Source: Anaerolineae bacterium
Lineage (GTDB): Bacteria > Chloroflexota > Anaerolineae > S140-20
DNA: 64,000 nucleotides
Direction: 5' to 3'
NCBI GenBank assembly: GCA_034435435.1
Contig: DAOTXN010000052.1
Location: 42,927 to 106,926 of the forward strand
Both the position numbers and the translations under genes were made by a program. Below the pieces are notes generated by a model. That model did not search any database, had not been told where the DNA came from, and saw only the letters and a program-made list of their open reading frames with translations. Of this stretch, positions 39,636 through 54,255 are shown piece by piece; the stretch's first letter is position 1, and every line of letters starts with the position of its first letter.

Positions 39636-40655
39636 ATGCTTGAAGCATTGATCAAAAGCCTGGTTATCGTCGCCACCATGCTGACCGGGTTCGCCTATAT
39701 GACCTGGGTCGAGCGCAAAGTGGTGGCGCGGCTGCAAACCCGCTACGGCCCCAACCGGGTCGGGCGGTTCGGGCTGTTGCAACCCCTGGCCGATGGCATC
39801 AAGCTCATTTTCAAAGAAGAGCTGATCCCCGCCCAAGCCGACCGGGTCATTTTTGTGCTGGCTCCCATCATCACGGTCGTCCCGGCGCTGCTCATCTTTG
39901 CAGTTATTCCGATGGGCGGCGCGCTGCGCATTGGCGGGACCGAGATTGCGCTCGGCTTGGCCGATATTAACGTGGCTGTGTTGTACGTCCTGGCGATCAC
40001 ATCCATCGCCGTATACGGCATTGCCCTGGCCGGATGGGCCTCGAACAACAAATATGCACTCCTGGGCGGGGTGCGCTCGACGGCGCAGATGATCAGTTAC
40101 GAACTGCCGCTGGCGCTGGCTATCGTCGGCGTGCTGCTGCTCAGCGGCAGCATGAGCCTGAACGACGTGGTGGGGCGGCAAGAAAAAACCGGCGTGTGGT
40201 TCATCTTTGTGCAACCCATCGCCGGGTTCATCTTTTTGATCACCGCCCTGGCAGAGACGAATCGCGCCCCCTTTGACTTGCCCGAAGCCGAACAGGAATT
40301 GACCGCCGGTTATCACACCGAATACAGCGGGATGAAATTCGCGTTGTTCTTTATGGCCGAGTATATTAAAATGATCGCCGTCAGCGCGCTGGCCGTGACC
40401 TTTTTTTTCGGCGGGTGGCTGCCCCCCTTTCCCAATCTGTTGCGCGGGCTGTGGGAGGCGGCCGGCGGATTTACCTGGCTCTCGCCGGTCTGGTTCGGCG
40501 CCAAAGTGCTGCTCTTGTTGATGATGATGGTGTGGATTCGGGCCACGCTGCCCCGCTTGCGCTATGACCAGTTGATGCACTTTGGGTGGAAGTTTTTGCT
40601 GCCGCTGGCGCTGCTCAACGTAGTGCTGACGGCGGGGGTGTTGGTAATTTGGTAA
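39636..40655 (+). CDS. nuoH: NADH-quinone oxidoreductase subunit H
   Basis: ERKVVARLQTRYGPNRVG, LADGIKL and ETNRAPFDLPEAEQELTAGYHTEYSG motifs. Confidence 0.95.
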   Translation: MLEALIKSLVIVATMLTGFAYMTWVERKVVARLQTRYGPNRVGRFGLLQPLADGIKLIFKEELIPAQADRVIFVLAPIITVVPALLIFAVIPMGGALRIGGTEIALGLADINVAVLYVLAITSIAVYGIALAGWASNNKYALLGGVRSTAQMISYELPLALAIVGVLLLSGSMSLNDVVGRQEKTGVWFIFVQPIAGFIFLITALAETNRAPFDLPEAEQELTAGYHTEYSGMKFALFFMAEYIKMIAVSALAVTFFFGGWLPPFPNLLRGLWEAAGGFTWLSPVWFGAKVLLLLMMMVWIRATLPRLRYDQLMHFGWKFLLPLALLNVVLTAGVLVIW

Positions 40656-40677
40656 GTTGGTAAATTGGGGAAGAAAG

Positions 40678-48556: not shown

Positions 48557-48787
48557 CTAATGAGAGCGACAAGTCGCACAAGCGCCCGACGGCGCGCATC
48601 CGGCGCACCCGCCGCCGCTCCCGGCCACGACCTTTCCATCGCTGTGAGCTGCAAAGAGCGAAATCGCCCGGCTGGTGTGCGCCCCGTGGCAATTCTTGCA
48701 CGTGGGAGGCTCATCAGCCTGGCTGCGCGGGCGTAGCATCTCGAATTTGGTCTGGCAGTCGCGGCAATAATACTCGAAAAGCGGCAT
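48557..48787 (-). CDS. FmdB-family zinc-ribbon protein
   Basis: MPLFEYYCRDCQTKFE...CKNCHG is the canonical FmdB CxxC...CxxC N-terminus, with a Gly/Cys-rich tail. SD GAGGTG lies 6 nt upstream. Confidence 0.75.
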   Translation of the reverse strand: MPLFEYYCRDCQTKFEMLRPRSQADEPPTCKNCHGAHTSRAISLFAAHSDGKVVAGSGGGCAGCAPSGACATCRSH

Positions 48788-48879
48788 CCCACTCACCTCA
48801 GTTTCTTACCCGCCAGGCAGGTATGGAAACCTGCCCTACGATTCAACGCCGTGCATTGTATCTCGATTCAACTCGCAGG

Positions 48880-50061
48880 TCAAGAAATTAGATGCGCCTC
48901 GCGGCCCACGCGCGCCATAATCTCTAGCACTTGATCCAATTGCTCGTCGGTATGGGTGGCCATATAGCTGGTGCGCAACAGCGACATACTGGGCGGGACG
49001 CCTGGCGGGATAAAGACGTTGGTGTACACACCTTCATCGTACAAACGCTTCCACACGAGCAACGTGCGCAGGTCGTCTCCGATGATGATGGGGATAATCG
49101 GCGTCTGGCTGGGGCCGACGTTGAAACCCAGCTCACGATAGGCCTGGCGCATCCGATTGCCGATCTCGCTCAGGCGGGCGATGCGGTCCGGCTCTGTCAG
49201 CATAATCTCCAGCGCGGCCAGGGCCGCCGCCGTGTTAGGGGGTGTGAGGGCGGCGCTAAAGATAAACGCCCGGGCGTGGTGCTGGATAAAATGAATGATG
49301 TCGTGGTCGCCGGCGACAAAACCACCCATCGAGGCAAACGACTTGCTAAACGTGCCCATAATCAGATCTACCTGATCGGTGAGGCCAAAGTGAGCACTGG
49401 TCCCCCGTCCACCGGCCACCACACCGATGGCGTGCGCGTCATCCACCATCAGTCGGGCTTGATACCGCCGGCACAAGGCCACGATTTCGGGCAACGGCGC
49501 GATGTCACCCTGCACACTGAACACGCCATCCACGACGACCAGCTTGCCGCTCTGCAATGGCGTCGAGGCCAACACGCGCTCCAGGTCCTCCATATCGCTG
49601 TGCCGGAAACGCTTCATCGCGCCGCGTGCGAGCATACAGCCATCCACGATGCTGGCGTGGTCTTCTTTGTCGGTAATAACATAATCGCCTTTGGTGACCA
49701 GCGCCGAGATGACGCCCAGGTTGACCTGGAAGCCGGTGCTAAAGACCAGCGCATCTTGCTTGCCCACGTACGCAGCCAGGCGACGCTCCAGTTCGCGGTG
49801 CAGCTCCAGCGTGCCGTTCGCCAGGCGCGAACCGGTACAACTGGTGCCAAACTCGTGAATAGCGTCTATGGCGGCCTGCCGGACGCGCGGATGGGTGGTC
49901 AGTCCCAAATAGTTGTTCGCGCCGCACATAATGATGCGGTGATCGCCCACGTATGCCTCGGCGCCTTCCGAGTGAGTCAAGGGGACAAAAAACGGATAAA
50001 TACCCGCTTCCTGCGCGGTACGGGCATCGGTAAACTGATGACACTTGACAAATAAATCCAT
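48880..50061 (-). CDS. PLP-dependent alpha-oxoamine synthase family acyltransferase (serine palmitoyltransferase / Kbl / BioF-like)
   Basis: NNYLGL, HASIVDG and DDAHAIGV blocks, plus the PLP-lysine block GTFSKSFASMGGFVAG. Start taken at the ATG at 50061 (MDLFVK...). Confidence 0.8.
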   Translation of the reverse strand: MDLFVKCHQFTDARTAQEAGIYPFFVPLTHSEGAEAYVGDHRIIMCGANNYLGLTTHPRVRQAAIDAIHEFGTSCTGSRLANGTLELHRELERRLAAYVGKQDALVFSTGFQVNLGVISALVTKGDYVITDKEDHASIVDGCMLARGAMKRFRHSDMEDLERVLASTPLQSGKLVVVDGVFSVQGDIAPLPEIVALCRRYQARLMVDDAHAIGVVAGGRGTSAHFGLTDQVDLIMGTFSKSFASMGGFVAGDHDIIHFIQHHARAFIFSAALTPPNTAAALAALEIMLTEPDRIARLSEIGNRMRQAYRELGFNVGPSQTPIIPIIIGDDLRTLLVWKRLYDEGVYTNVFIPPGVPPSMSLLRTSYMATHTDEQLDQVLEIMARVGREAHLIS

Positions 50062-50231
50062 CGAATCGCTCCCTTTGCAGATAGTATATTGAACAAATCG
50101 GACGGATGGTGCGATCGCCCGATCGGAGGTCATTTTACTGGTCTTTATGAGTTTGGTCAAGAACAGCAATCGGCGGTCGGCCTGAAAGCTGATAGTTGAT
50201 GGCTGATAACTGAAAAGAAAGGAGTCAACCC

Positions 50232-51680
50232 TTGAAGAGCTTTACCGATCGTGCGTTAAATACTGCCGAGTCTCTTGGCGCTACCTACGCCGACATACGC
50301 ATTGTAACCCACACCACCCAGACAGTCGCGGTAAAGAACGGCGTGGTTGAAACGGTAGGTCAGAGCCAGGATCACGGCTTTGGTTTGCGTGTGGTCGCGG
50401 ACGGTGCGTGGGGCTTTGCCTCCAGCGCTCTGTTGACGGCAGAAGAGATCGACCGCGTCACTGCGCTGGCGGTGCGCATCGCCCGGGCCAGCGCGTTGGT
50501 CCAAAGGAACGGTGGAGTGAATCTCGGCCCACGCGTGTCCAATGTCGGAAAATACACCACCCCGGTCGTAATCGAACCCTTTAGCATCCCGCTGGAGCAA
50601 AAAATCGACGTGTTGCTCCAGGCCGACGCTGCCATGCGCCGTGTGCCTGGCGTGCGCATCACGCAAGGCGGCATCGTTTGCGAGCGAGAAAACAAAGTCT
50701 TTGCCAGCAGCGAAGGCAGCTTTGTCGAACAAGTGATCATCGAAACAGGCTGCGGCATCACTGCCACTGCGGTGCAAGGCGGCGAGATCCAAAAACGTTC
50801 TTTTCCCAACGCCTTCGGGCGGCACCAGATGACCCGTGGCTGGGAGTTCGTGGTCGAGATGGACCTGCCCGGCCACGCCGAGCAGGTCGCCAGCGAAGCG
50901 GTCGCCCTGCTCAGCGCCGAGCAGTGCCCCAGCGGCGTGACCACCCTCATTCTGGGCGGCGCCCAGCTTGCGCTGCAAATCCACGAATCGTGCGGCCACC
51001 CCATCGAACTGGACCGGGTGTTCGGGACTGAGGCCGCCTATGCCGGGACGAGTTTTCTCACCCCCGAAAAACTCAACTCTTGGCGCTACGGTTCAGAAAT
51101 CGTCAACCTGACTGCCGACGCCACCCTCCCCGGTGGGTTGGGCACGTTTGGTTTCGACGACGAAGGCGTGCCGGCCCAGCGCGTGCCCATTGTGCGCGAC
51201 GGAATCTTTGTGGGCTATCTCAGCTCACGCGAGACGGCGGCTCAACTGGGCCTGCCGGGCAGCGGCGGCGCAATGCGCGCCTCCGGCTGGAACCGCATCC
51301 CCCTCATTCGGATGACCAACGTGAGCCTGGAACCGGGCGCGTGGACTTTTGAAGACCTGATCGCCGACACCGACGACGGCATCTATATGGAGATGAACCG
51401 CAGTTGGAGCATTGACGACAAACGACTCAACTTTCAATTCGGCGTCGAGCTGGCCTACGAGATCAAAAACGGCAAAATGGGCCGTCTGCTCAAAAACGCC
51501 ACCTATACCGGCATCACGCCCGAATTCTGGGGTTCGTGCGACGCTATCTGTAACGCCGACCACTGGACAGTGTGGGGCACGCCCAACTGCGGCAAAGGCC
51601 AGCCCAGCCAGGTGGCGCATACCGGGCACGGCGCCGCCCCAGCGCGTTTTCGCAACGTGCAGGTGGGGGTGATGAAGTAG
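50232..51680 (+). CDS. tldD: TldD-family metalloprotease
   Basis: Metal-binding block HESCGHPIELDR and a Gly-rich C-terminal region. The TTG start follows AAAGGAG. Confidence 0.85.
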   Translation: MKSFTDRALNTAESLGATYADIRIVTHTTQTVAVKNGVVETVGQSQDHGFGLRVVADGAWGFASSALLTAEEIDRVTALAVRIARASALVQRNGGVNLGPRVSNVGKYTTPVVIEPFSIPLEQKIDVLLQADAAMRRVPGVRITQGGIVCERENKVFASSEGSFVEQVIIETGCGITATAVQGGEIQKRSFPNAFGRHQMTRGWEFVVEMDLPGHAEQVASEAVALLSAEQCPSGVTTLILGGAQLALQIHESCGHPIELDRVFGTEAAYAGTSFLTPEKLNSWRYGSEIVNLTADATLPGGLGTFGFDDEGVPAQRVPIVRDGIFVGYLSSRETAAQLGLPGSGGAMRASGWNRIPLIRMTNVSLEPGAWTFEDLIADTDDGIYMEMNRSWSIDDKRLNFQFGVELAYEIKNGKMGRLLKNATYTGITPEFWGSCDAICNADHWTVWGTPNCGKGQPSQVAHTGHGAAPARFRNVQVGVMK

Positions 51681-51731
51681 ATCGGTAATTGGGAAATTGT
51701 GAAATTGGGAATTGCCAGCAAGGAGTGAAAA

Positions 51732-52448
51732 ATGCCTGAACCATTGTGGAAGATTCGGCAACGTAAAGGACTGAATATTAACCAATTGGCATCCAAGTCG
51801 GGCGTGCCAGCCATCTCGATTCAGGAGTACGAGTCGGGGCGGGCCATTCGCGGGGCCGACTTGCCCAAGCTGGCCAAAGCGTTGTTTGTGGAAGAATGGG
51901 ACATCGAAATCCAGGGCAAACCGCCCGCTAAGAAAAAGCCTGCCACACCCGCCCCAGCGCCCAAGCCTACACCGGCGGCTAAACCGCCAGCAGTCTCACC
52001 GCCCGCTCGCCCCTCTCAGATCGAACACTTGCTCAACCTGACTATAGCGCGCTTTGGCAAAGATCGCGCTGCATTGGAAGCAGAAATCGGCAAGCCGTTG
52101 GAGCAAATGACAAAACTCCAAGCCGGCCAGTTGCTCAACAAATACCAGAAGCTTCTGGCCGAGTCGCAAGAGACCCGCTCACCTGAAGAGAGAGAAGCCA
52201 AACGCAAACGAGCTTACCTGCCCGAAGGAGTGGACGGGTTTGAGCTGCAATACCTCACCGCTCAACAAGAGCAGAACGCGCTGCTTACCTTTACTCTCTT
52301 TGACGGTCAGCAATTCAGCGGACGCATCGTCGGCTTTAGCCCTTACAGCATCACCATCCGCGAAGAGCAAACCCAAGCCGAAGTGACGCTACAGAAATTG
52401 GCCGTGGCCTACTATCGGGCCGCGCGCGCCGAAGGGGGAGAACCGTGA
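51732..52448 (+). CDS. HTH-XRE domain protein with Pro/Ala/Lys-rich linker, helical middle region and C-terminal Hfq-like (Sm-fold) segment
   Basis: HTH: IRQRKGLNINQLASKSGVPAISIQEYESGR. C-terminus LLTFTLFDGQQFSGRIVGFSPYSITIREE..AEVTLQKLAVAYY follows the Hfq pattern V.i.L.nG..l.G.I..fD.f.i.l......v.KHAI. Confidence 0.6.
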   Translation: MPEPLWKIRQRKGLNINQLASKSGVPAISIQEYESGRAIRGADLPKLAKALFVEEWDIEIQGKPPAKKKPATPAPAPKPTPAAKPPAVSPPARPSQIEHLLNLTIARFGKDRAALEAEIGKPLEQMTKLQAGQLLNKYQKLLAESQETRSPEEREAKRKRAYLPEGVDGFELQYLTAQQEQNALLTFTLFDGQQFSGRIVGFSPYSITIREEQTQAEVTLQKLAVAYYRAARAEGGEP

Positions 52449-52840
52449 GCCTGGGCGACGAATTGCGCTATCTGCGAGCTCAAGCTGGCGGCCCCACACC
52501 TCTGGACATCGCCGAGGCCGTGGGCATAGACGCCGGACTTTATCGCCAGCTCGAACAGCGTTATCGCGAGTTGGGCGACGACGAAACCATTAACAAGCTG
52601 GCCGCCTATTTTGGCTGTGACCCCGAAATGCTCAAACAAGCCCGGCCGCGCTCGCGCAAGGCCCTCAGCCAGTTTCTCGCGCAGGCGACAAAGCAAGACC
52701 GACCAGTGCAGCTTCACGTGCGCACCGGCGAAAGCTTGAACGGGCGAGTGATCTGGTGGGACTTGGGCGCGTTGGGTCTGCAACCGCAAGATGGCGGGCC
52801 TATCATCGTCGTGCAAAGACACGCTGTAGTAGGCTGGTAG
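52445..52840 (+). CDS. Short HTH-like / Hfq-like (Sm-fold) fusion protein, paralogous in architecture to the upstream gene
   Basis: N-terminus: LRYLRAQAGGPTPLDIAEAVGIDAGLYRQLE. C-terminus SQFLAQATKQDRPVQLHVRTGESLNGRVIWWDLGALGLQ...IIVVQRHAVV aligns with E. coli Hfq [36 protein letters not shown]...MVYKHAIS. GTGA overlap with the upstream stop. Confidence 0.6.
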   Translation: MSLGDELRYLRAQAGGPTPLDIAEAVGIDAGLYRQLEQRYRELGDDETINKLAAYFGCDPEMLKQARPRSRKALSQFLAQATKQDRPVQLHVRTGESLNGRVIWWDLGALGLQPQDGGPIIVVQRHAVVGW

Positions 52841-52852
52841 AAAGGACAAACC

Positions 52853-54199
52853 GTGCTAGGAGAACAAAAAATAAAACAGCTACTCGACAGCATCCTTCAA
52901 CGCTCTGATGCTGATCAGACCGAAGTGCTGGTGATGGGGCAGGATGAACAATTGACCCGTTTTGCCAACAATATCATCCACCAAAACGTCGCCGAGACCA
53001 ACACTATCCTTACCGTGCGCGTGGCATTCGGCCAGCGGGTGGGAATGGCTACCACCAATGATTTGAGCGCCGCCGGGCTAGACCGTGCGGTCGAGACGGC
53101 TACGACTGTGGCGAAACTTCAACCCGAGAACCCCAACTTTGCCGGATTTCCAGAGCCGCGGGCGTTGCGCTTGGTACAGGCATTCGACGCCGCCACCGCC
53201 GCCTATAGCCCTCAAGACCGCGCTGAGCAAGTAGGGAGCGTGTGCCGCCGCGCTGCCGAAAAGAAACTGACCGCCTCGGGCGCGTTCACCACGACGACTC
53301 AAGAGTTGGCCGTCGCCAACTCGCACGGGGTATCGGCCTATTTTCCATCCACCGGGGCTGACCTGGTTACGGTCGTGATGAGCGACGACAGCGCCGGGTA
53401 CGCTGCCGAAAAATCCTGGCGCGTCGCTCAGGTCAATGTGCCGGCCCTGGGCGACGAAGCCATTGCCAAGGCTCTGCAAAGCCGCCATCCCCGCGATTTC
53501 GAGCCGGGTGCTTACACCGTCGTGCTGGAACCCTACGCCACCCAAGACCTGGTCGCCATGCTGGCCTACACCGGCATGGGCGCGTTGGCAGTTCAAGAGG
53601 GGCGCAGTTGGATGAATGACCGCATCGGTCAACAGATTATGGCCCCCTCGGTCTCTATTTGGGACGACGGTCTCGACCTCGGCGGCGCACCGCTGCCTTT
53701 TGATTTTGAGGGCACACCCAAACAGCGGGTGGACATGGTGAAGAAAGGCATCCCCCTGGAGGTCGTTTACGATACGGCGACCGCCCGAAAACAAGACGGC
53801 CAAGAAAGCACCGGTCACGCCCTGCCCCCGGCGCTGGCGACCACCTATGGTCCCATGCCAACCAACCTTTTTATGGCCGCCGGCGACGCCACGCTCGACG
53901 AGATGATCGCCAGCACCGAACACGGCTTGCTCATCACCCGCTTCAATTACACCCGTCCGGTGCACCCGCGCGACGCTGTCATCACCGGCCTCACGCGCGA
54001 TGGCACTTTTTTGATCGAAAACGGCGCCATTGCCTACCCGGTGAAAAACCTGCGCTACACCCAGAGCTACGTGGCAGCCCTGGCGCAGGTCGAGATGATC
54101 GGCAAGGAACTCAAAACATTGGAGAGCTACATCGGCGCCCAGCGCGTGCCGGCGGTCAAAATCCGCGAGTTTAACTTTACGGGCAAGACCCAATTTTAG
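52853..54199 (+). CDS. pmbA: TldD/PmbA-family protein (PmbA/TldE-like partner subunit)
   Basis: Family-typical length and blocks (FANN.IHQN, GLLITRFNYT, FLIENGAIAYPVKNLR). It lacks the HExxxH of TldD. Confidence 0.8.
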   Translation: MLGEQKIKQLLDSILQRSDADQTEVLVMGQDEQLTRFANNIIHQNVAETNTILTVRVAFGQRVGMATTNDLSAAGLDRAVETATTVAKLQPENPNFAGFPEPRALRLVQAFDAATAAYSPQDRAEQVGSVCRRAAEKKLTASGAFTTTTQELAVANSHGVSAYFPSTGADLVTVVMSDDSAGYAAEKSWRVAQVNVPALGDEAIAKALQSRHPRDFEPGAYTVVLEPYATQDLVAMLAYTGMGALAVQEGRSWMNDRIGQQIMAPSVSIWDDGLDLGGAPLPFDFEGTPKQRVDMVKKGIPLEVVYDTATARKQDGQESTGHALPPALATTYGPMPTNLFMAAGDATLDEMIASTEHGLLITRFNYTRPVHPRDAVITGLTRDGTFLIENGAIAYPVKNLRYTQSYVAALAQVEMIGKELKTLESYIGAQRVPAVKIREFNFTGKTQF

Positions 54200-54202
54200 C
54201 CT

Positions 54203-54255
54203 ACCACCAAGGCGCCAAGACGCCAAGACACTAAACAACTTTGTGTCTTGGTGGT
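54203..54255 (+). other. Stem-loop after pmbA whose 5' arm contains a tandem duplication
   Basis: accaccaag[gcgccaagac gccaagacac]taaacaactttgtgtcttggtggt. ccaagacac pairs with gtgtcttgg, and accac with gtggt. There is no T-run. Confidence 0.4.

Follow-up and report, generated by a model that had tools for sequence, protein, structure and literature searches.

A translationally coupled pair of XRE helix-turn-helix proteins ending in Hfq-fold Sm domains in Anaerolineae and related Chloroflexota

Here we describe two overlapping genes, termed A and B, in a 64,000-nucleotide stretch of contig DAOTXN010000052.1 from an Anaerolineae bacterium (hereafter the window). Located between genes of the tldD and pmbA types, they each encode an N-terminal helix-turn-helix (HTH) of the XRE type joined to a C-terminal Sm domain with the fold of Hfq. 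Hfq is generally regarded as an RNA chaperone that consists of a stand-alone protein and forms homohexamers, and to our knowledge the only bacterial Sm folds described in fusion with a DNA-binding domain are of the distantly related WYL type. Regulators that combine an HTH with an Sm fold have thus been described previously, with PafBC as their exemplar; what is new is that genuine Hfq-family domains are carried on XRE HTHs by a coupled pair of proteins. One of the Sm domains (in A) is nearer to canonical Hfq and the other (in B) is of the cyanobacterial type, and the coupled pair is present in four or more classes of the Chloroflexota, a phylum that has received little study. The conserved unit is the A-B pair and not the four-gene arrangement tldD-A-B-pmbA. 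We tentatively favor the reading that A and B form a translationally coupled, most likely hetero-oligomeric nucleic-acid-binding regulator that follows a logic similar to that of PafBC but is built from different protein families.

Domain architecture of proteins A and B

Gene A (positions 51732-52448, forward strand) encodes a protein of 238 residues, and gene B (52445-52840, forward strand), which begins with a GTG codon, encodes a protein of 131 residues. The GTG start codon of B overlaps the TGA stop codon of A by 4 bp (52445-52448, forward strand; GAACC-GTGA-GCC; junction letters GAACCGTGAGCC), a sequence feature that points to translational coupling of the two genes. The original prediction, made by reading the sequence, placed two genes with a GTGA overlap between tldD and pmbA, and proposed that this is a duplicated architecture in which both products begin with an HTH (clear in the first protein, weaker in the second) and end in an Hfq-like Sm core, with a Pro/Ala/Lys-rich linker and a helical middle domain present in the first protein. 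The coordinates of the open reading frames (ORFs) and the junction letters agree with this description, and its remaining elements are borne out by the structural models and profile comparisons that follow.

To describe the fold of each protein we used AlphaFold2 (AF2) models built with family alignments; these are monomer predictions, with a predicted local distance difference test score (pLDDT) of 84 for full-length A and 91 for full-length B (predicted template modeling score, pTM, 0.75). In both models the C-terminal region has the N-terminal α-helix and five strands of an Sm fold. In A this domain, together with its lead-in, spans residues 160-231 (52209-52424, forward strand), where a helix (residues 165-180) precedes the five strands (184-230) and the lead-in carries a largely invariant R-A-Y-L-P-E-G-V-D-x-F-E sequence. 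In B it spans residues 68-131 (52646-52837, forward strand), with a helix formed by residues 73-84 and strands within residues 87-130. When the models were compared with the Protein Data Bank (PDB) using Foldseek, the top 50 matches were to Hfq alone, both for A and for B. The model of A superimposes on E. coli Hfq (3rer) with a TM-score of 0.94 and a root-mean-square deviation (rmsd) of 0.9 Å over 62 residues, and further matches include Hfq from S. aureus (1kq2) and Listeria (4noy). The best match of the B model is Synechocystis Hfq (3hfo), followed by the Caulobacter and Aquifex proteins.

Profile comparisons place B within the family Hfq_1 (PF21979), as the whole protein scores 32.6 bits and its isolated Sm domain 35 bits (cutoff 27); the scores of B against Hfq (PF17209; 14.5 bits, cutoff 27) and against the NCBIfam model Hfq_rel_Cyano (NF047718; 31.7 bits, cutoff 52) lie under the respective cutoffs. 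Protein A is not a member of Hfq_1 (12-15.5 bits) and matches PF17209 weakly (E 4e-3 and 17.2 bits, or 20.4 bits for the isolated Sm domain), and its score of 14.3 bits against TIGR02383 falls under the curated Hfq threshold of 61.7. Among isolated Sm domains of the two families, 15 of 16 A-type domains match Pfam Hfq (best E 3.8e-5) and 17 of 17 B-type domains match Hfq_1 (best E 1.5e-10). The B family profile also matches two cyanobacterial Hfq structures as well as Aquifex Hfq (E 1.3e-3), in the latter case with VVVQRHAV aligned to the Sm2 motif LVYKHAIT. The Sm domains of A and B are themselves related (hhalign probability 88%, E 2.8e-6) at an identity of 16%, and their sequences suggest that the two proteins are anciently diverged, distant paralogues.

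Residues of the two Sm domains were mapped to E. coli Hfq using low-identity profile and pairwise alignments in combination with invariant alignment columns. By this mapping, B keeps G29, G34 and D40, and carries W105 in place of F39 and the invariant R125-H126 in place of K56-H57; F42 is replaced by G108, Q8 by leucine, Y25 by histidine, and the rim arginines R16/R17/R19 by T-K-D. The family alignment of B contains an invariant W-D-L-G (105-108), which includes W105-D106, an invariant Q-R-H in Sm2 (Q124-R125-H126) and an invariant terminal tryptophan. In A, the residues that correspond to F39 (F202), F42 (replaced by Y205) and K56 (K222) are all invariant; H57 is replaced by L223, D40 is replaced, and Y25 is not kept (T188). 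The Sm2 motif accordingly reads Q-R-H-A-V in B and Q-K-L-A-V in A, as compared to [YF]-K-H-A-[IV] in Hfq. As judged from these alignments, A and B appear to retain partly complementary subsets of the Hfq proximal site, with A keeping the tyrosine and B the histidine.

The XRE-type HTH of A occupies residues 1-60 (51732-51911, forward strand), is a member of the XRE / Cro-C1 HTH group (PF01381 clan) as it scores 33.2 bits against HTH_3 (cutoff 23), and is formed by helices 5-12, 16-23, 27-34 and 44-51 at pLDDT >90. The N-terminal part of the A family profile matches dh434 (a protein derived from the 434 repressor), the C protein C.BclI, ClgR and DdrO. In B, residues 1-66 (52445-52642, forward strand) form an XRE-like HTH with five helices within residues 3-66 (pLDDT 84-95) and an invariant E-Q-R-Y-R motif. 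Its score of 25.2 bits against HTH_31 lies just under the cutoff of 27, making it a borderline XRE member, and the N-terminal part of the B family profile matches ImmR of ICEBs1 (7t8i, E 2.6e-3).

Protein A contains two additional segments between its HTH and its Sm domain. Residues 61-92 (51912-52007, forward strand) form a disordered, Pro/Ala/Lys-rich tether (pLDDT 53-74) of ~30-40 residues, whose length differs among species by up to ~70 extra residues in the alignment. It leads into a three-helix module (residues 93-148; 52008-52175, forward strand) that consists of helices 94-108, 112-119 and 128-148 (pLDDT ~91, and >90 across helices 94-148), carries conserved A-R-x-x-Q-I-x-H-L-L and G-K-P-L motifs in invariant alignment columns, and is joined to the Sm domain by a short linker of low model confidence. 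Profile searches of the PDB and Pfam returned no significant relative of this module, the best candidates being matches at chance level to T4 lysozyme (E 0.02) and DUF3072 (E ~0.1). In one homologue of 285 residues (P0055) the module is present as a tandem duplicate at residues ~85-135, and because this protein carries two copies, the module is an independent, discrete domain.

Conservation and pairing of A and B

A collection of 5.8 billion proteins contains 365 homologues of A and 397 of B, and since hundreds of conserved homologues exist, the two genes are real far beyond chance. All of the named homologues are from Chloroflexota, chiefly from metagenome-assembled genomes of Anaerolineae, and the source annotations call them either 'XRE-family transcriptional regulator' or 'hypothetical', with two Joint Genome Institute (JGI) entries adding 'sRNA-binding regulator protein Hfq'. 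A hidden Markov model (HMM) search of 1.84 billion representative sequences with the Sm domain of B returned just 48 clusters at E<=1e-3, which argues that the fused HTH-Hfq family is narrow. Apart from orthologues of B and fragments of genes, the clusters contain a small number of Hfq_1 proteins that stand alone, as well as giant proteins (P0263, P0266 and P0287) whose matches are spurious and which were rejected as relatives because they are composed of Ig-like repeats.

To survey the gene neighborhoods we scanned one genome per species and recovered 58 loci, which fall in four NCBI classes (Anaerolineae, Ardenticatenia, Thermoflexia and Ca. Thermofontia). Gene A lies 5' of gene B in 58/58 loci, the two are directly adjacent in 57/58, and the 4-bp start/stop overlap is kept in 48/58. 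This strict pairing and the conserved overlap fit the production of two partners in a fixed ratio. In our reading, filamentous Chloroflexota carry A-B throughout the lineage as a module that is passed on vertically. The sole split among the 58 loci is found in L010 (485-1618), where a 377-residue zinc alcohol-dehydrogenase-like gene separates A from B. A stand-alone, 84-residue Hfq-like protein with an R-W-W-D motif as in B (P0279; L066, 2433-2687) is encoded in a phage-like contig that also carries RusA and many small ORFs.

Linkage to tldD and pmbA

In the window the A-B pair is flanked on the same strand by the two protease-type genes. The tldD-type metalloprotease gene (50232-51680, forward strand; 482 residues) encodes three PmbA_TldD Pfam domains (E 1e-41, 1e-15 and 2e-14), and a HESCGH (HExxxH) motif is visible in its translation. 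The pmbA (tldE)-type gene (52853-54199, forward strand; 448 residues) encodes a PmbA_TldD_3rd domain (E 8.6e-49) in addition to the first and second domains, and HExxxH is absent from its translation. The two proteins therefore have the features of a TldD/PmbA pair, namely three PmbA_TldD domains in each and an HExxxH motif in TldD only. The spacer between tldD and A (51681-51731, forward strand; 51 bp) contains an AAGGAG Shine-Dalgarno sequence and no terminator, pmbA begins after a 12-bp spacer that follows the stop codon of B, and the GC content of the A/B region is similar to, and continuous with, that of its flanks.

Linkage was sought within 6 kb in the 46 of 58 loci that were assessable, having enough flank on both sides. 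Both tldD and pmbA flank the pair in 14/46 loci, tldD alone is present in 1/46 and neither gene is present in 31/46, such that tldD lies 5' of A in 15/46. In a neighbor-joining tree of concatenated A and B sequences, the linked loci are all located in one large clade, where they are interleaved with unlinked loci, and no linked locus falls in the Ardenticatenia-like or the Thermoflexales-like clade. This pattern fits a single ancestral linkage followed by repeated loss. Three loci (L005, L008 and L017) lack tldD and pmbA but still carry the pair together with the aminotransferase and Zn-ribbon genes upstream of it. Two outcomes had been named that would undercut the original prediction, namely no predicted Sm fold in the C-terminal segments, or absence of the pair between tldD and pmbA from all related genomes; neither is observed, as both C-termini are modeled as Sm folds and tldD-A-B-pmbA recurs in other species. 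The description of a pair embedded in a TldD/PmbA operon holds for the one clade that includes the window; because linkage is limited to that clade and 31/46 loci lack it, the embedding is lineage-specific and does not define the system. For the same reason the suggestion that A and B are substrates or adaptors of the protease fares less well, as tldD lies 5' of A in only 15/46 loci, all of them in one clade, which makes an obligate role of this kind unlikely.

Putative promoter and operator sequences

A conserved promoter-like box, CTGGACAAAyTGGC-N6-8-GTGGCATAATC, is positioned 5' of tldD in the linked loci L018 and L019 and directly 5' of gene A in the unlinked loci L012, L014, L016 and L024. 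The spacer between its -35-like and -10-like parts is also conserved, which suggests a bound regulator. Sharing of the box between linked and unlinked loci argues for a single promoter that serves A-B in some loci and tldD-A-B-pmbA in others, and for an operon of all four genes wherever they are linked. The box with GTGGCATAATC is strongly conserved among species in which A and B share only ~50-55% identity with the proteins of the window. In the window itself no promoter consensus was found, consensus scans for promoters and terminators inside the operon gave nothing above background, and the leader and putative promoter region are located 5' of tldD (50170-50231, forward strand), where an AAAGGAG Shine-Dalgarno sequence is present and the operon diverges from an aminotransferase gene.

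In an Ardenticatenia-like clade (L052, L054 and L063), the DNA ~35-55 nt 5' of gene A contains a perfect palindrome of 17 bp, GCGATTTTGAAAATCGC, which directly follows a TAGATT -10-like box and precedes the Shine-Dalgarno sequence. Near-palindromic variants are present in L053, L056 and L061, and the window has no equivalent. The palindrome is compatible with autoregulation by an HTH and is, by its sequence and position, a candidate autoregulatory operator in this clade only. An inverted-repeat operator shared by the whole family was considered and rejected, as the perfect palindrome occurs in one clade.

Relation to known Sm-fold proteins and XRE regulators

Searches of the full-text literature revealed no XRE-HTH–Hfq fusion, no Hfq in Anaerolineae and no HTH tied to TldD/TldE in this manner, and among curated families we found none that describes an XRE-HTH–Hfq fusion. 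The view that the architecture matches no described system therefore stands for the fusion itself, but not for its general logic, as PafBC and WYL factors also join an HTH to an Sm fold. The best-characterized analogue is PafBC, a mycobacterial/actinobacterial DNA-damage regulator. Its two close homologues, PafB and PafC, are encoded by adjacent genes in an operon tightly tied to the proteasome locus and act as a heterodimer. The WYL domain of each adopts an Sm fold that strongly resembles Hfq, and conserved residues of the β4/β5 (Sm2) loop, where the ligand binds, are essential for function (PMC6789036). Single-stranded DNA (ssDNA) is reported as the activating ligand of PafBC (PMC11804915). 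The A-B pair resembles PafBC in the fusion of an HTH to an Sm-fold domain, in the presence of two adjacent paralogous genes and, by analogy and in one clade, in its protease-associated operon. However, A and B have XRE-type HTHs, whereas PafBC and other WYL factors (DriD, CapW and BrxR) have winged ones. Their Sm domains are C-terminal with nothing following them, such that there is no WCX domain, and they are not WYL proteins, as the Pfam scan returned no WYL (PF13280) match at E<=1 and the Foldseek top 50 contained no WYL structure. In addition, A contains the extra tether and helical module, and the protease neighbors are TldD/PmbA instead of the Pup-proteasome. Hfq-fold domains also normally assemble into hexameric rings, in contrast to the dimers formed by WYL-type proteins.

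Protein B shares L-x-T-G-[DE] and W-x-D sequences with the cyanobacterial Hfq proteins Ssr3341 (3HFO) and Asl2047 (3HFN), which unlike the 131-residue B with its HTH are stand-alone proteins of ~70 residues that lack one. The Sm2 position is occupied by R-H in B and by R-R in the cyanobacterial-type protein P0267. Cyanobacterial Hfq_1 proteins function through PilB1, a pilus ATPase, and are not proven to act as small RNA (sRNA) chaperones (PMC4390875). One cyanobacterial contig (JBRCNH010000152.1; L065, 3367-3965) carries two tandem stand-alone Hfq_1 genes, encoding 82 and 114 residues and separated by 5 bp, directly 3' of a GntR-type HTH gene, so that unfused paired paralogues sit beside an HTH gene in this organism. 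Canonical Hfq, as in E. coli, S. aureus and Listeria, has the fold of the C-terminus of A to an rmsd of ~1 Å, and the Sm1 glycines and the aromatic core are retained. The pair differs from it in that the Sm domains are fused to HTHs, in that two diverged paralogues take the place of one homohexamer-forming gene, and in that most RNA-contact residues are replaced. The placement of an XRE protein gene beside a metalloprotease gene also recalls ImmR/ImmA of ICEBs1 and DdrO/IrrE of Deinococcus, and by HTH profile B is similar to ImmR and A to DdrO. Unlike in those systems, the protease is TldD/PmbA and not of the ImmA/IrrE type (COG2856), and the linkage is missing in most lineages that have the pair.

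A proposed model and its alternatives

In the model that we tentatively favor, A and B would join via their Sm domains to form a single hetero-oligomer, in which the HTH domains would contact DNA. Besides serving as the oligomerization platform, the Sm domains would probably bind a single-stranded nucleic acid or another ligand, the site being the conserved Sm2 loop (Q-K-L for A, Q-R-H for B). The pair would regulate its own operon and, in the linked clade, would be co-transcribed with the TldD/PmbA genes, probably from the pair's own promoter, such that the protease linkage is a secondary, clade-specific coupling. The analysis establishes the folds and domain identities, the paralogy, the strict pairing with its conserved overlap and the phyletic pattern, and from these we infer hetero-oligomerization, DNA binding, ligand sensing and operon regulation for A-B. 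Because the domains are true relatives of Hfq, a closed ring, which could be heteromeric, is no less likely than a dimer of the WYL type. An extended form of the model, which we consider distinctly unlikely, is that A and B form a hetero-oligomeric Hfq ring (e.g. A3B3) with tethered HTHs, similar to the hetero-rings of eukaryotic Sm/LSm proteins, that couples DNA sites to single-stranded RNA or DNA and acts as a global Hfq-like regulator of filamentous Chloroflexota.

Several observations weigh against the favored model. The HTH score of B falls short of the Pfam cutoff, the recognition helices of both HTHs differ among clades, there is no family-wide operator, and the tldD-A spacer of the window contains no inverted repeat, a weak 12-nt palindrome being present only 5' of tldD. 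Closed Hfq hexamers differ from WYL dimers, so the PafBC analogy may fail in geometry, and the proteins may instead form homo-oligomers (A6 and B6) or simple dimers. By the residue mapping, Hfq contacts have been lost at Q8, F42 and the rim arginines in B, at H57 in A and at Y25 in both, which suggests that the ligand may not be a nucleic acid. The nearest relatives of B, the cyanobacterial Hfq_1 proteins, work through the protein partner PilB1 (PMC4390875), and since they do so a protein ligand of A-B is possible.

The same Hfq kinship can be read in a different manner, in which the pair replaces Hfq as an RNA chaperone, its hexameric ring binding sRNAs and mRNAs and its HTHs making accessory nucleic-acid or protein contacts instead of reading specific sequences. 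The Sm domains indeed resemble true Hfq far more than they resemble WYL or any other Sm-like fold (Foldseek top 50, TM-score up to 0.94). At the pore position K56-H57 an R-H is retained in B, and in A a lysine is retained at K56 and a tyrosine at F42. No other Hfq-like ORF was found within the 64-kb window, which was the only stretch searched, and the pair, present throughout the lineage, appears to be a core module. We nevertheless consider this reading unlikely, as most proximal, distal and rim RNA-site residues are not conserved, the closest relatives in cyanobacteria lack a demonstrated sRNA-chaperone role, and a well-formed XRE HTH such as that of A (33 bits against HTH_3) would make little sense in a protein that does not bind DNA. 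Also doubtful is the view that A and B are independent XRE repressors whose Sm barrels only homo-oligomerize and whose pairing reflects co-regulation and not physical association. Many XRE repressors have C-terminal oligomerization domains, and the N-termini of A and B match repressors of phage and integrative and conjugative element (ICE) type, as well as related proteins (ImmR, the 434-derived protein, C proteins, ClgR and DdrO). However, invariance of the Sm2-loop residues over four classes exceeds what a scaffold requires, the Sm domains have diverged into complementary patterns (Tyr in A and His in B), and coupling as tight as that seen here (overlap in 48/58 loci and both genes in 58/58) is rare for independent repressors.

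A further alternative, which we regard as very unlikely, is that the pair is dedicated to TldD/PmbA as its substrate, adaptor or specific regulator, in analogy to cleavage in the ImmR/ImmA and DdrO/IrrE systems. It is consistent with the tight same-strand cluster of four genes (intergenic distances of 51, -4 and 12 bp, with no terminator between the genes), with the presence of this arrangement in 14 other species and its persistence since the ancestor of one clade, with the resemblance of the HTHs to ImmR and DdrO, and with the long disordered linker of A, which could be a cleavage site. Nevertheless, 31/46 assessable loci, including whole classes, have no tldD or pmbA within 6 kb, the loci L005, L008 and L017 keep the pair and its upstream neighbors after the protease genes have gone, and every conserved motif of A and B is just as invariant where the linkage is missing. 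Moreover, TldD/PmbA is not of the ImmA/IrrE type: E. coli TldD/E degrades unfolded peptides that are fed from a free end, whereas the N-termini of A and B are folded. The notion that the pair is a mobile, defense or toxin-antitoxin-like cassette inserted by chance between tldD and pmbA is extremely improbable. Two small overlapping HTH genes do superficially resemble toxin-antitoxin or controller genes, and the stand-alone Hfq-like relative P0279 is encoded in a phage-like contig, but PADLOC and PHROGs scans match the HTH region only and do not assign the pair to a defense or phage family, the GC content is similar to that of the flanks, the spread is limited to one phylum, the same flanking genes recur beside the pair in several lineages, and no integrase or repeats flank it.

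If either the hetero-ring or the PafBC-like sensor proves true, the A-B pair would widen the repertoire of bacterial Sm proteins, constitute a second, independent HTH–Sm pair linked to a protease operon, with a link that is experimentally testable, and be a candidate global regulator for Anaerolineae and related bacteria, which reach high abundance in wastewater sludge, sediments and hot springs.

Additional features of the locus

Upstream of the operon and divergent from it, the window contains a Zn-ribbon (FmdB-like) gene (48557-48796, reverse strand) and a KBL/AONS-type aminotransferase gene (48880-50169, reverse strand). A Zn-ribbon gene, an aminotransferase gene or both also adjoin the pair in L003, L005, L007, L017, L029, L035 and L051, which include linked and unlinked loci. 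Clustering of all flanking ORFs revealed no general neighbor of the pair besides TldD/PmbA. In 7-8 loci of one clade (e.g. L031, 6404-9066), a trio of genes that resemble NUDIX, anti-sigma and extracytoplasmic function (ECF) sigma factor genes, labels that were read from the sequences and not from a family scan, is located 3' of the pair on the opposite strand. No Rfam family was detected in or around the operon at E<=0.1.

Short tandem arrays are present in the intergenic DNA. Tandem Repeats Finder (TRF) identified 4.6 copies of CTGATAG 5' of tldD (50182-50213) and 3.1 copies of AATTGGGA in the tldD-A spacer (51687-51711), and the window contains additional arrays at 54207-54229 and 40641-40668. 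Arrays are likewise present in relatives (L011, 5214-5251; L020, 5199-5227; L028, 3084-3109; L052, 5040-5066). Across the 58 loci their density is ~1.2 arrays per kb of intergenic DNA. They comprise 3-5 copies with a period of 7-8 nt, and the repeated unit differs by site (CTGATAG, AATTGGGA, CCAAGACG, TTGGTAAA, GCTGACG and others). We considered whether these repeats form an operator or an Hfq-binding array and rejected this idea, as the units differ by locus, arrays occur elsewhere in the window and they are not enriched 5' of A (0.99 per kb as compared to 1.24 per kb in the remaining intergenic DNA of these loci, p=0.77). Arrays with this period recall the heptameric short tandemly repeated repetitive (STRR) sequences of filamentous cyanobacteria. 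Lastly, in the Thermoflexales / Roseilinea clade (L023, L026, L027 and L040) the sequence GTGGCATACTG lies 5-6 nt before the ATG of gene A, and its closeness to the start codon and the lack of a Shine-Dalgarno sequence suggest that the gene A transcript is leaderless in these organisms.

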